Below, piece after piece: positions 6,383-10,778 of a stretch of 28,508 bases of DNA. The notes below the pieces were generated by a model. That model did no database searches. It had not been told where the DNA came from and was given only the letters and a program-made list of their open reading frames with translations. Source of the stretch: Bacteroidales bacterium (lineage in GTDB: Bacteria > Bacteroidota > Bacteroidia > Bacteroidales > ML635J-15); assembly GCA_007130555.1 (NCBI GenBank), contig SLSH01000305.1, forward strand, positions 1 to 28,508. Reading direction: 5' to 3'. The first letter of the stretch is position 1, and each line of letters begins with the position of its first letter. A program made the translations under genes and the position numbers.

Positions 6383-6625
6383 ATGGAAGACACATTAGTA
6401 ACATTAGTAAAATATAGGTACGAGTATCGTGCTCATATACTTAGGGATAAACTTGAAGAGATAGGCATAACATGTGCCGTTTCGAACTTGTCTGTATTTG
6501 GAGAAATAGATGGCGTAAAAGTAATGGTTATGCAAAAAGATTTTGATAAAGCTTTAAAGATTTATCAGGAAATACGTAATTTATATGATAATCATTCCGA
6601 TGATGTAATTGAGGAAGGCGATTAA
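6383..6625 (+). CDS. DUF2007-like small putative signal-transducing protein (80 aa)
   Basis: LVTLVKY.YEYRAHILRDKLEEIGI.C ... GVKVMV.QKDFDKALKI fits the DUF2007 pattern (A.l++..Le..GI ... v.v.V...D...A..i). Confidence 0.7.
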   Translation: MEDTLVTLVKYRYEYRAHILRDKLEEIGITCAVSNLSVFGEIDGVKVMVMQKDFDKALKIYQEIRNLYDNHSDDVIEEGD

Positions 6626-9600
6626 ATTAAAGTTTTTAACTCTTCCATTACCAGTTTTTTAACAGGTTCTCTTTTTTTACGGGCAGTTTCGGTAAAGAAC
6701 TTATGTTCTGTCATAAATTTATACTGAAATTTATTCCATTCTTGTATAGTATTTACTTTTCCTCTTTCGAACAGTTCCCTGAATAAGTTTTGTGAAATAG
6801 GTATAAAATCAGGTCTTCCGAGATAGTCCAGGTCGGCATCACAAATTATTTTTTCCAGTAAATCTTTAGGATTCGGAGGCATTTTTGTGGCTAAAATCAA
6901 TCTTTCAACTGTAGCTATTTGGTCCTGTGAAAATTTATATTTCCGCAATGTTTGTGTCGCCATTTTTGCTCCGATTTTTTCATTATCATCATAACTGACT
7001 AAAAAACCCGCATCATGAAAAAGTGCGGCGCATTTTAATAAGAGCATTTCTTCTTCGTTAACCTTTTCTTTTCGGGCAAAATTTTCTACTACATACAGAA
7101 CATTAAGCGTATGCTTTAAATTATGATAATAAAGATTTTTCGGAAGATTTTTTTCTAATTGTTCCAAAATTTCTTCCTGTATGTCTTTTAATTTTATATG
7201 TTGTAGTTTTATCAAAAAATCCCTGTTAGGTAATAAGGAATTATGTCCTTCGGATAATTCTGCCTTAATATTATTAACCAGATACATTTCAAGCTCACCT
7301 TTATATTTTATATTGATTTTTCCTCTGTGGGTACAATCAAAAAAGTCTTGTATATAACTGTGAGTGGATTGTGATACATTAACTTTGTTGACAAGTCCGT
7401 GCGACTCCATTCTACTGGCAATATTAACGGCATCACCCCAAATATCATACTCTAATTTATTTGAGCCAACAACACCCGATACTACAGGTCCTGTATGTAT
7501 TCCTATTCTTAATTTGATTTTTAAATCATTTTCCTGATTATATAATTTGATTTTATTTTGCATTTCCATTCCTGCCAATACAACTTCTATCGGATTTGTT
7601 TTTTCCGCAACAGGTATTCCTCCCGCACACATATATGCATCACCTATTGTTTTGATTTTCAGGATATTATATTTTATTATAATTTTATCAAAGTCAGAGA
7701 ATATATTGTTAAGGCATGTAATAAGTTTTTCGGTATTCTCTTTTTCGGCAATTTTTGTAAATCCTTGTATATCTGCAAATAATACCGACACCATTTCATA
7801 TTTTTGTGATTTGGCTTCTCCTGTTTTTTTAATTTCGTCAGCAGTATAATCGGGTAAAAGTTTTTTTACCAGTTTTTCGGTTTGTTCTTTTTGATGCGAC
7901 AGTTCATTTGTACGTTGTTCTACTAATTTTTCGAGTCTGTAATGTTCTTTGGCGTGTCTTAATTCATTTAGTTTTAAAATCAGATAAATTAAAGCTCCAA
8001 GTAATAATACATAAAATATATATGCATAAATTGTTTGATAAAAAGGAGGTATAACTTTAAAATATATTGCAGTCTCTTCGCTGATGTTTCCGTACACATC
8101 TCTTGCACGTACCATAAAAACGTATTCTTTGCCTGTCAGGGCAGTATATTCCTTGAAACATTCCTGTGTCCATTCCGACCATTCCGAATCAAATCCTTTA
8201 AGAAAAACCTGAAATTCATTACTTCCGTATGAATTATATTGTAAATAAGTAAAATCAAATCTTACGGATTTATCGGAAAACAAAATTTCAAATTTATTTT
8301 CCCGACTGCTATCAAAATCAGGAGGAATATAAATAACAGAATCGTATCCGATTGTTATTTCTCTTATAAAGCATGGAGCAGTACTTTTGTGTATATCATA
8401 AAAATTATGTTTATATTTAATTAAAGATTCTGTTGTACCAAACCATATATTATCATCTGATTCCGCATAAATTGATTCTATCGGGAATTTTCGTATTAAA
8501 GCAAATGGATTAATAGTTTTTGTATATGTATTGTCTTTTTGATTAAATAATGCGACTCCTGTTTCTTTGTAATATTTATTTGAAAAAGTACAGCTAAACC
8601 ATAGATTTTTATTTTTATCTTCAATAATAGGATATATATACATATTTTCTTGTTCAAAATCATATCCTAAAAGAGTATCATATTCAAATCTGTTAGTATT
8701 GTAATTATAATTAAAAAGACCTTTTTGAGTAGAGAACATTGTTCCGAAGCTTTGCTGATAAACATCAACCCAGTTAAATCTTTTAGGGAATGCATTCTTT
8801 TCATTAAAACTTAAAAAATCGGTATTTGTTTTATAATCTCCGTTAAAGTTTAATTTAAATAATCCGTCTGCATTTGTGCCCAACCAAACTGTTCCCGTTT
8901 TATCAATGTTTATAGTTCTTATATTATAATTTAATCCTTCTACATATCCGATAGTGTCAAAATAATTACCGGATATTTTACTTATTAATAACCCATTACT
9001 GCCACCAATCAAACATATTTTAGGATTAATTTCGGATTGAACAATTTTATTGTATTGTCCCTCAAGTGCTTTTATTGCTCTGTTGTTTTTAATAAGAAAT
9101 ACTCCTGATGAACTTGCGGCAAATAAGTTATTATTAATTTCCGACAGATGCCATGTTATATTACTAATTCCGTCGATTCTTCGAAATCTTTTTCTGTTAT
9201 TGAATTCAGATATCTCCGTTTCATAAATGTTTCCGTAAAAATATCTAAAAACTCCGGTTGTCGTTGCGACATAGAGGGAATTGTCTTTTCTCAGCACAGA
9301 TATAATTGCTCCATTAAGCCCGAAATTTACATCGAAAAAATCAAAAGGAGAAGGAGTTTCTATCAGAGCAATTCCATTATATGTAGTTACCCAAACTTTA
9401 TTATTAATATCAATATAAAGGTCGGTAATATGATTATCTCTTAATCCGTTATTTCTGTTTAAAGCAAAAATAAATTCCCCTTTATTATTTATACATACAA
9501 TTCCTCCCAACCTTGTTCCGATAATAATATTACCATTTGACAGATTCGTACTTACAGAGTATTTGTTTTGTAACATAAATAAATCTGCCTCTGTCCGAAA

Positions 9601-10293
9601 ACGATATAATCTGTTATTTTCATAAATTAAAAATCCTCTTTGATTTTCGGGTTTTATTAAAATTTGTCTGTCATTTAATTCATACATATCCAAAATATGT
9701 GTGTTTTTAAGTTTGGTAAAATTTTCGGCAGGAATAATTTTTTTGTTTTTCCACGTAAATAGTCCTTTATTTGGAACAAACACATATAGTTTGTCATGGA
9801 TTTTAAAAATATTTATACCTCTGATATTAGATAACTGAACCTCAATAGTGTCATCAATATATGATAATAGCTGATGTGAAGTTGAAAAAAACACTTCGTC
9901 TTCAAATGCAAGAATTTTATTTATTTGTCCGGGATTAATTTCTTTTTTGTAATTAAATAATTCTGTACTTAAAAGACCATTTTTATGAACTAATTTTCCA
10001 AGTTGATTGTATCCTCCGAAATAAATCTCATTTTGCGAATTAATATCCATTTCAGGACGACCTGCTACTGGTATTAATCTCCATGATGAATTATCATATT
10101 CCATTATTCCGTTTACATTACCAAAATACATTAAGTGGTTTTGGTCTTGTATTATAGAAAAATTTTGGCTTTCCTGAGCATAAGTAATTGGCGAGATGTT
10201 TTTAAAACTGGGAATACCATGCTCTTTATTCTGGGAAAGAATATTTGCTGGAATTAGCAATATAAAAAACAAATAAATAAAAATTCTTCTCAT
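6622..10293 (-). CDS. Membrane-anchored sensor: beta-propeller repeats + Y_Y_Y domain + TM + class III adenylate cyclase + C-terminal HD domain (1223 aa)
   Basis: Signal peptide; two-component-regulator propeller repeats (IDKTGTVWLGT, EDKNKNLWF); Y_Y_Y-type FQVFLKGFDSEWSEW..KEYTALTGKEYVFMVRARD; TM YAYIFYVLLLGALIYLIL; cyclase motifs VLFADIQGFT, KIKTIGDAYM, RIGIHTGPV, YDIWGDAVNIASRMES; HD motifs YHNLKHT, FHDAG, CDADLDYLG. Confidence 0.9.
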   Translation of the reverse strand: MRRIFIYLFFILLIPANILSQNKEHGIPSFKNISPITYAQESQNFSIIQDQNHLMYFGNVNGIMEYDNSSWRLIPVAGRPEMDINSQNEIYFGGYNQLGKLVHKNGLLSTELFNYKKEINPGQINKILAFEDEVFFSTSHQLLSYIDDTIEVQLSNIRGINIFKIHDKLYVFVPNKGLFTWKNKKIIPAENFTKLKNTHILDMYELNDRQILIKPENQRGFLIYENNRLYRFRTEADLFMLQNKYSVSTNLSNGNIIIGTRLGGIVCINNKGEFIFALNRNNGLRDNHITDLYIDINNKVWVTTYNGIALIETPSPFDFFDVNFGLNGAIISVLRKDNSLYVATTTGVFRYFYGNIYETEISEFNNRKRFRRIDGISNITWHLSEINNNLFAASSSGVFLIKNNRAIKALEGQYNKIVQSEINPKICLIGGSNGLLISKISGNYFDTIGYVEGLNYNIRTINIDKTGTVWLGTNADGLFKLNFNGDYKTNTDFLSFNEKNAFPKRFNWVDVYQQSFGTMFSTQKGLFNYNYNTNRFEYDTLLGYDFEQENMYIYPIIEDKNKNLWFSCTFSNKYYKETGVALFNQKDNTYTKTINPFALIRKFPIESIYAESDDNIWFGTTESLIKYKHNFYDIHKSTAPCFIREITIGYDSVIYIPPDFDSSRENKFEILFSDKSVRFDFTYLQYNSYGSNEFQVFLKGFDSEWSEWTQECFKEYTALTGKEYVFMVRARDVYGNISEETAIYFKVIPPFYQTIYAYIFYVLLLGALIYLILKLNELRHAKEHYRLEKLVEQRTNELSHQKEQTEKLVKKLLPDYTADEIKKTGEAKSQKYEMVSVLFADIQGFTKIAEKENTEKLITCLNNIFSDFDKIIIKYNILKIKTIGDAYMCAGGIPVAEKTNPIEVVLAGMEMQNKIKLYNQENDLKIKLRIGIHTGPVVSGVVGSNKLEYDIWGDAVNIASRMESHGLVNKVNVSQSTHSYIQDFFDCTHRGKINIKYKGELEMYLVNNIKAELSEGHNSLLPNRDFLIKLQHIKLKDIQEEILEQLEKNLPKNLYYHNLKHTLNVLYVVENFARKEKVNEEEMLLLKCAALFHDAGFLVSYDDNEKIGAKMATQTLRKYKFSQDQIATVERLILATKMPPNPKDLLEKIICDADLDYLGRPDFIPISQNLFRELFERGKVNTIQEWNKFQYKFMTEHKFFTETARKKREPVKKLVMEELKTLI

Positions 10294-10500
10294 TTAAAAT
10301 ACAGAATATATAGTGGTTTATTCAACTTTATATTTATGCAAATATTATAAAAAATATTCATTTTAACAAAATTTTTTAGCACATGACAAAAATAATTCTA
10401 TTTTTTAAAATATAATTTTGTCCTTATATTTAGGGGGCTAAAACATTAACCGAAAAATATCTCGCTAAGTCCAATAAAAAAAACTAATAATTTTAGAATA

Positions 10501-10569
10501 CTTTGTGATCTTTGTGCCTTAGTGGGGAAAAAATCAAAAAACTCCCACAAAGACACTAAGAACACAAAG
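10501..10569. repeat. Inverted repeat built from three 8-9-bp tandem units per arm (CTTWGTG core)
   Basis: Left arm CTTTGTGAT CTTTGTGC CTTAGTGGGG (10501-10527). Right arm CTCCCACAAAG ACACTAAG AACACAAAG (10542-10569), whose reverse complement is CTTTGTGTT CTTAGTGT CTTTGTGGGAG. The spacer is 14 nt and A-rich. Confidence 0.85.
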
Positions 10570-10778
10570 ATAAATACAATAAAATTAATCTGAATAAAAA
10601 AAATCATTTAGCATATATTACTGATTGTATGCAATTTGATAAGATATAAAGAACTTTTGTCATGTACTAAAACAAAATTTAATAATATCAAATTCAAAAA
10701 TAATATCAGCTTTGTTTTATTATTAGATAAATTTTTATAAAATTGTAGTCGGTAATATTTTATTTTTTTATCATTATA

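Follow-up and report, generated by a model that had tools for sequence, protein, structure and literature searches.

A Bacteroidales receptor combining an HTCS-type periplasmic sensor, a predicted adenylate cyclase and a class I phosphodiesterase-like HD domain

Proteins that both generate and degrade cyclic AMP (cAMP) within a single polypeptide are already known from plants. In Marchantia polymorpha and other streptophytes with motile sperm, COMBINED AC with PDE (CAPE) contains a canonical full-size class I phosphodiesterase (PDE) at its N-terminus and a class III adenylate cyclase (AC) at its C-terminus, with both activities having been shown biochemically in vitro (PMC5159850). Here, a bacterial gene predicted to encode a comparable pairing is considered. 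The gene is found at positions 6622-10293 on the minus strand of contig SLSH01000305.1 from a Bacteroidales metagenome-assembled genome (MAG; assembly GCA_007130555.1). The whole stretch of DNA analyzed, comprising 28,508 nucleotides, is referred to below as the window. The gene corresponds to one uninterrupted open reading frame (ORF) of 1223 codons and a stop codon, with the 1223-residue product being referred to below as the receptor.

Like CAPE, the receptor includes in one polypeptide a class III AC and an HD-superfamily domain of the cyclic nucleotide phosphodiesterase or phosphodiesterase-like kind, single-chain make-and-break having been proven for CAPE. The order of the two domains is, however, reversed, with the cyclase preceding the HD domain, and the latter is a minimal version of 200 residues that scores below the PDEase_I threshold. 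Moreover, the receptor is bacterial and, unlike CAPE, presents a sensor of the type found in hybrid two-component systems (HTCS) and a transmembrane (TM) helix ahead of the enzymes. CAPE is the closest proven analogue of the receptor, with no sign of orthology being seen. In terms of its sensor, the receptor can be compared to the HTCS proteins of Bacteroides (BT4663, PDB 4a2l/4a2m; 3v9f, 3ott/3va6), with which it shares a homologous sensor of equal size followed by a TM helix. Where HTCS proteins continue into a histidine kinase-receiver-AraC output, the receptor instead continues into a coiled coil, a cyclase and an HD domain. In terms of its cyclase, the receptor shares catalytic and ATP-specifying residues and a transducer helix with the class IIIa membrane ACs, namely, mammalian AC1-9 and Mycobacterium Rv1625c/Cya. 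Those enzymes contain 6-TM bundles, whereas the receptor contains one TM helix, a large ectodomain and an additional C-terminal HD domain.

The following order of parts was confirmed in the receptor, with domains being assigned using Pfam and hydrophobic segments by hydropathy:

10231-10293, minus strand: residues 1-21, N-terminal signal peptide or uncleaved membrane anchor (MRR followed by a hydrophobic stretch; hydropathy)
8032-10230, minus strand: residues 22-754, periplasmic sensor, homologue of the HTCS double beta-propeller and Y_Y_Y sensors (Pfam, profile against PDB)
8071-8205, minus strand: residues 697-741, membrane-proximal, Ig-like Y_Y_Y domain (sub-threshold Pfam match lying inside the 3v9f profile match)
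7963-8031, minus strand: residues 755-777, single TM helix (hydropathy)
7813-7962, minus strand: residues 778-827, long cytoplasmic helix of the coiled-coil type, ending in the cyclase-transducer-like motif LLPDYTADEI (alignment, AlphaFold model)
7273-7812, minus strand: residues 828-1007, class IIIa nucleotidyl cyclase catalytic domain (Pfam, alignment)
6625-7224, minus strand: residues 1024-1223, all-helical HD domain of about 200 residues with a class I PDE-like fold (Pfam, model)
6832-7119, minus strand: residues 1059-1154, Pfam HD match (E 2.2e-9)

Because hydropathy detected only two hydrophobic segments (residues 1-19 and 754-778), residues 22-754 can be assigned to the periplasm and everything beyond residue 778 to the cytoplasm. 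A preliminary description of the locus, made from the sequence alone, had placed a propeller region, a TM helix, a coiled coil, a class III cyclase and an HD domain in this ORF. The intact reading frame, the Guanylate_cyc, Reg_prop and HD matches in Pfam and the hydropathy profile bear out that set. Likewise, every motif quoted at that time was located (D841, D885, K881, D950, N957, R961, H1057/H1061, H1093-D1094 and D1152/1154/1156). As for the coiled coil, the AlphaFold model contains one long helix running from the end of the TM segment to the cyclase, with the coiled-coil character of that helix being putative.

We consider it moderately probable that the receptor is a ligand-gated homodimeric AC in which a built-in cAMP phosphodiesterase restricts both the spread and the lifetime of the signal. 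Accordingly, the protein would act as a homodimer that passes once through the inner membrane. Binding of a periplasmic ligand to the double-propeller/Y_Y_Y ectodomain would be relayed across the membrane by the TM helix and onward by the coiled-coil/transducer helix, reaching the class IIIa cyclase dimer, which would convert ATP to cAMP. As a minimal relative of the class I cyclic nucleotide phosphodiesterases, the C-terminal HD domain would convert cAMP to 5'-AMP, using its H..HD..D metal site and the His of the YHN motif as general acid. By carrying its own signal terminator, the receptor could generate a cAMP output that is local, short-lived or buffered. The preliminary description had gone further in proposing that the ligand may toggle the receptor between synthesis and hydrolysis; this is speculation by analogy with Rel/SpoT and GGDEF-EAL proteins.

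The HD domain is central to this reading. Its match to the Pfam HD family (PF01966) scores 38 bits, relative to a cut-off of 22, and its motifs read Y-H1057-N-x-x-H1061, H1093-D1094 and C-D-A-D1154-L-D. In a set of 120 homologues sharing 51-80% identity with the receptor over the cytoplasmic part, the annotated members of which come from MAGs of Bacteroidales/Bacteroidota, H1057, H1061, H1093, D1094 and D1154 are invariant. As such, the earlier claim that the H...HD...D signature is retained holds for all four metal ligands (H1061, H1093, D1094 and D1154). These ligands and the YHN His are, moreover, at least 90% conserved in 73 proteins of other architectures. When solved structures were searched by sequence, 2pq7, an HD hydrolase, came first (E 3.4e-5), together with YedJ, followed by a block of class I PDEs that included PDE9, PDE5 and trypanosomatid PDEB1 (E of about 0.01-0.03). 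In these alignments, the receptor sequence YYHNLKH falls on the Y-H-N-x-x-H motif of PDE5 and PDE9 and ALFHD on the PDE HD motif. In PDE4 and PDE5, the two His residues of Y-H-N-x-x-H act as the general acid and a metal ligand, respectively. Weak matches of the HD domain to Ppx-GppA_III and HDIG/CCA were also obtained.

When modeled alone, the HD domain adopted an all-helical fold (predicted local distance difference test [pLDDT] score of 92.8). An exhaustive search with this model of 48,161 PDB representatives ranked the HD families as follows:

Class I PDEs, Z 13.5-16.9: PDE7A (16.9), RhoPDE (16.7), PDE8A (16.1), PDE9A, LmjPDEB1, PDE2A and PDE4B/D
Class I PDEs, continued: TcrPDEC, PDE5, PDE1B, PDE3A and yeast PDE2 (13.5)
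Small bacterial HD hydrolases, Z 13.7-16.6: 2pq7 (16.6), YpgQ (15.9) and YedJ (13.7)
All other HD families, Z 10.6 or less: GppA/PPX, small alarmone hydrolases, SpoT, SAMHD1 and HD-GYP

The PDE matches comprised 17 representatives, with 187-198 residues being aligned (about 195 of 209) at a root-mean-square deviation of about 3 Å. Foldseek searches of the PDB and of Swiss-Prot models returned the same ranking picture. Class I PDEs assemble their two-metal site from H..HD..D alone (PMC8177086), and the receptor domain shares with them (PDE1-11, RhoPDE, trypanosomatid PDEB and yeast PDE2) this H..HD..D-only site, the fold, the Y-H-N-x-x-H and HD motifs and the distal metal Asp. With YpgQ, YedJ and 2pq7, the receptor domain shares structural rank, a similar size and the DADxLDxxG motif, and of all solved structures, these proteins match it best by sequence. 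On the other hand, YpgQ, YedJ and 2pq7 are stand-alone proteins and we know of no reported link between this group and cyclases. YpgQ hydrolyzes NTPs/dNTPs in a Mn-dependent manner (PMC8177086), and plant YpgQ-like HD proteins have been reported to hydrolyze cAMP/cGMP (PMC8431786). The modeled fold and the motifs thus place the HD domain in that branch of HD proteins which contains the cyclic nucleotide PDEs, with fold and motifs together not fixing the substrate.

Further toward the C-terminus, on the second helix to follow the metal Asp, W1186, Q1190, F1193 and H1197 are invariant in the receptor family. In the 73 proteins of other architectures, the Trp is found in 72, the Gln in 63, the Phe in 66 and the His in 71.

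The partners with which this HD subfamily is fused were next considered. A profile search of 1.84 billion representative proteins returned 5820 relatives, 1161 of these at E < 1e-30. About half of the best 150 of the 5820 are 1200-residue sensor-cyclase-HD proteins. The best 150 also contain 73 shorter proteins, 40 of which carry a cyclase domain and which, as a group, present Y_Y_Y, 7TMR-DISM, dCache, MASE2, TPR, HNOBA and REC modules. Other domain orders were also encountered, namely, HD-cyclase, HD-PAS-PAS-cyclase, HD-cNMP_binding, HD-cNMP_binding-SpoIIE, HD-cNMP_binding-HisKA and HK-REC-HD, where cNMP refers to cyclic nucleoside monophosphate, HK to histidine kinase and REC to receiver. 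That the subfamily has been fused independently to cNMP-binding domains and, in either order, to cyclases is the strongest comparative argument for a cyclic mononucleotide as substrate or ligand of the HD domain. Canonical PDEase_I was detected above threshold in none of 301 Bacteroidota genomes; the only two sub-threshold matches were both to proteins of this same HD subfamily in which the HD domain is joined to a PycTM module.

The complement of cAMP-related genes in the host MAG, which comprises 2.6 Mb on 445 contigs and is 87% complete, was also examined. In addition to the receptor gene, the MAG contains three further cyclase-domain genes (contigs C188/L003, C150/L002 and C358/L004), one being a CHASE2-cyclase gene cut by a contig end and the other two being short; an HD domain was detected in none of the three. 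The MAG encodes five cNMP-binding proteins, and this HD subfamily is present in a single copy. At the same time, no PDEase_I or PDEase_II match was found in the MAG, and the best score obtained there with the CpdA equivalog model was 19 bits, against a cut-off of 225 bits. In this 87% complete MAG, the HD domain of the receptor is accordingly, as judged by family models, the sole recognizable candidate cAMP phosphodiesterase.

In the preliminary description, the HD domain was assigned the role of eraser of cAMP or a related nucleotide. The proximity of its fold to that of the class I PDEs, the sub-threshold PDEase_I matches and repeated fusion to cyclases and cNMP-binding domains lend that assignment support, with the activity itself being predicted. 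Several points nevertheless weigh against it. The PDEase_I model (PF00233) scores the domain at 16.0 bits, relative to a threshold of 24.8, and this over profile positions 1-45 only; given this score below the gathering threshold, the domain was not filed as a PDEase_I member. Class I PDEs contain a second His in HDxxH and about 130 more catalytic-domain residues, with the receptor domain lacking both. F1097 is found at the position of that second His, the 120 homologues presenting Phe in 99 cases, His in 11 and Tyr in 10. In addition, YpgQ, which is an NTP/dNTP pyrophosphohydrolase, and the uncharacterized 2pq7 and YedJ rank equally with the PDEs as structural neighbors. The correspondence of Q1190 and F1193 to the invariant purine-binding Gln (the 'glutamine switch') and the hydrophobic-clamp Phe, which sit in the equivalent helix of PDE4 and PDE5, is putative; a profile of the C-terminal 84 residues of the HD domain drew only chance matches from the PDB (a designed PPR protein, toxin B and OSCP) and no PDE. 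Moreover, CRP/FNR-type cNMP-binding domains do not all bind cAMP. Finally, as the MAG is 87% complete, the absent PDE classes may simply be unassembled.

Alternatively, the cyclase could produce cAMP while the HD domain hydrolyzes some other nucleotide, with the fusion then linking cAMP output to another pool. We regard this as credible yet unlikely. Candidate activities would be those of a YpgQ-like NTP/dNTP pyrophosphohydrolase, an AMP 5'-nucleotidase, a 2',3'-cNMP phosphodiesterase or a (p)ppGpp/polyphosphate-type hydrolase. The structural tie between the PDEs and YpgQ, 2pq7 and YedJ, the lead of the latter group in sequence matching, the DADLDxxG motif shared with 2pq7, the action of YpgQ on NTPs and dNTPs, and the weak Ppx-GppA_III and HDIG/CCA matches all speak for such a role. 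By contrast, small alarmone hydrolases, SpoT and PPX/GppA score clearly lower in the structural comparison, and in 114 of the 120 homologues, the first His is followed by Asn, as in PDEs, rather than by the Asp found in the 2pq7 and YedJ alignments. Furthermore, hydrolysis of another nucleotide offers no explanation for why the HD subfamily has repeatedly been joined to cNMP-binding domains and, on either side, to cyclases.

It is less probable that the HD domain is mainly regulatory and turns over little or no substrate, instead binding cAMP or another nucleotide in feedback on the cyclase or mediating dimerization or docking. HD-PycTM proteins carry the HD domain N-terminal of PycTM, the same position relative to the TM module as is held by the cNMP-binding sensor domain in Pycsar effectors, and the predicted template modeling (pTM) score of 0.81 obtained for the two-domain cytoplasmic part suggests a defined cyclase-HD arrangement. 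Still, that the metal ligands and the YHN His are invariant in the 120 homologues, and conserved in the 73 proteins of other architectures, fits an active enzyme and not a binding module in decay.

Turning to the cyclase half of the proposed ligand-gated AC with built-in phosphodiesterase, Guanylate_cyc (PF00211) matches residues 828-1007 with E 1.9e-56 and a score of 191 bits, relative to a cut-off of 21.9. Among solved structures, the domain is closest to those of mammalian AC9, AC5 and AC8 (E to 5e-67), with GC-A, a receptor guanylate cyclase, and the mycobacterial Cya proteins also belonging to its nearest relatives. Because the alignment reaches into the pre-catalytic helix, with residues 786-829 matching the pre-catalytic helices of the AC9 C2 domain and GC-A, the domain can be assigned to class IIIa with a transducer helix. 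Indeed, in the AlphaFold model of residues 780-1223 (pLDDT 88, with the pTM given above), the transducer helix runs into the cyclase fold, and P814 of LLPDYTADEI is invariant in the 120 homologues. In the same homologues, metal-binding D841 is retained in 119 and D885 in all 120, as are phosphate-binding R929 and transition-state N957 and R961. Of the two base-specifying residues, K881 is Lys in 118 homologues and Arg in two, while D950 is found in all 120; the pair aligns with the IKTIG and YDIWG motifs of the AC9 C2 domain. In class III cyclases, Lys and Asp at these positions specify ATP, with Glu and Cys being found in guanylate cyclases, and active sites form at the dimer interface. Given the full catalytic set, the ATP-type pair and the location of such sites, an active homodimeric AC is expected, with ATP as likely substrate and with a homodimer like that of Cya being predicted from the sequence. 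The ATP-type specificity residues and full catalytic set recognized in the preliminary description were thus upheld, K881/D950, D841, D885, N957 and R961 being invariant or nearly so.

We consider it very improbable that the cyclase is silent, with the protein signaling otherwise, or generates cGMP, cCMP/cUMP or some other product, since K881/D950 form an ATP-type pair, the catalytic residues are intact, the nearest solved relatives are bona fide ACs and no defense-island context was seen; this despite the fact that the two canonical residues do not always predict the substrate of bacterial class III cyclases and that the link of the HD subfamily to PycTM recalls pyrimidine cyclase systems. 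A Pycsar-like defense system was also considered for this gene and was rejected in light of the ATP-type residues, the lack of an effector neighbor and the lack of island context.

The periplasmic part of the receptor was recognized by Pfam as Reg_prop (E 6.5e-13, 47.6 bits), with the Y_Y_Y domain scoring 15.4 bits, relative to a cut-off of 26.6, and exceeding threshold in most homologues. While a search with the single sequence returned weak matches to solved HTCS sensor domains of Bacteroides thetaiotaomicron, a profile built from 26 homologues matched 3v9f with E 6.5e-45, the best stretch covering residues 229-732, 4a2l (BT4663) with E 4.6e-40 and 3ott/3va6 with E 2e-34. At 734 residues, the ectodomain is of the same size as the solved HTCS sensors (758-795 residues). 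The profile matches and this equality in size together identify the ectodomain as a true homologue of the double-propeller and Y_Y_Y sensors, as had been claimed. The receptor is nonetheless not an HTCS, given that it lacks the kinase, receiver and AraC modules, with no Pfam match to HisKA, HATPase_c, Response_reg or HTH_AraC having been obtained. HTCS genes can be linked to a SusC/SusD polysaccharide utilization locus, whereas here, no Pfam match of the SusC/SusD or TonB-dependent receptor type was found in the ten flanking ORFs scanned. A glycan as the periplasmic ligand is only an analogy to the HTCS sensors.

Examination of the surroundings of the receptor gene revealed the following neighbors:

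6383-6625, plus strand: ORF of 80 residues encoding a DUF2007 protein ('putative prokaryotic signal transducing protein'), convergent with the receptor gene and overlapping its stop codon by 4 nucleotides
From 10779: rsgA, encoding a GTPase, divergent from and upstream of the receptor gene across a 485-bp gap

The remaining neighbors encode a GalE-like epimerase, a glutaminase and an SLT/LysM transglycosylase, and the receptor gene is apparently monocistronic. The divergent intergenic region (10294-10778) is AT-rich and holds CTTTGTG/CACAAAG inverted repeats; no exact TAnnTTTG -7 motif was seen by eye directly upstream of the receptor start codon. When eight window neighbors were tested for recurrence across 80 related loci, none of the eight recurred. 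In 58 related loci, other neighbors of the cyclase-HD gene were noted, namely, a Usp-family (universal stress protein) gene encoding about 280 residues in 21 (e.g., L011, 4702-5547) and a gene encoding the Ham1/RdgB NTP pyrophosphatase in 14. Some mycobacterial universal stress proteins bind cAMP. Neither the Usp nor the Ham1 neighbor is present in the window. In six loci (L021, L023, L028, L044, L051 and L059), two cyclase-family paralogues lie within a single 13-kb locus.

The receptor architecture is not unusual in sequence space, given its thousands of homologues, and the family is common in Bacteroidota. The cyclase-HD cassette was found in Bacteroidales, Marinilabiliales, Flavobacteriales, Chitinophagales and Cytophagales, with cultured carriers including Marinifilum sp. 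D737, Carboxylicivirga mesophila JCM 18290, Alkalitalea saponilacus DSM 24412 and Taibaiella koreensis. In the first three of these species, i.e., those whose genes were looked at, the gene products comprise about 500-600 residues and are thus too short to contain the 730-residue sensor. The HD subfamily as such was detected at E 1e-20 or better in 143 of 401 sampled Bacteroidota genomes, where its main forms are HD-PycTM proteins of 390-430 residues and proteins of about 200 residues that are encoded beside, or fused with, YitT-family membrane proteins. HD-PycTM proteins, which contain the Pycsar-effector membrane module PF18967 (L103, L104, L105 and L106), are found in all 15 sampled genomes of one genus and all 28 of one family, a distribution that looks like that of the core genome rather than of a defense island. 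A stand-alone HD protein of 190 residues is encoded directly upstream of a YitT_membrane and DUF2179 gene at L094 (1504-2965) and L096 (1507-2970), while at L102 (1516-2976), the HD and the YitT_membrane and DUF2179 parts are fused in a 486-residue protein. In a word-indexed search for stand-alone relatives, the best 120 matches were mostly contig-end fragments of the fusion, with true stand-alone forms coming from the exhaustive search. One stand-alone HD protein, P0330, is encoded on a contig of 952 bp, too short to reveal its gene context.

Bacteroidota were for a long time regarded as making little use of cAMP, with a 2005 census reporting no cyclases in the four Bacteroidota genomes then available (PMC1183210). 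The bacterial cAMP phosphodiesterases known to date belong mainly to the metallophosphoesterase (CpdA) class and to class II. No study of this family was found in a literature survey that covered bacterial cyclase-HD fusions, cyclases with Y_Y_Y, class III cyclases of Bacteroidota and 'HD-CE', such coverage being partial and not proving absence. The family is widespread and uncharacterized, with single-chain AC and PDE activities being already known from plants.

A broader and doubtful proposal would have the HD subfamily be an unrecognized bacterial branch of the class I PDE fold and the main cAMP eraser of Bacteroidota, serving as a portable cassette joined to sensor cyclases, cNMP-binding domains, PycTM and YitT, with a periplasmic ligand reciprocally switching synthesis and hydrolysis in the cyclase fusions in the manner of Rel/SpoT. 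At the level of the receptor, the proposed reading would mean that HTCS-type extracellular sensing is tied to a second-messenger output and not to direct control of transcription. Should the HD domain indeed hydrolyze cAMP, it would represent a minimal bacterial version of the fold that lies behind all animal PDE drug targets, many Bacteroidota receptors would carry their own signal terminator, and testable functions would be at hand for the HD-PycTM, HD-YitT and stand-alone HD proteins of this phylum.

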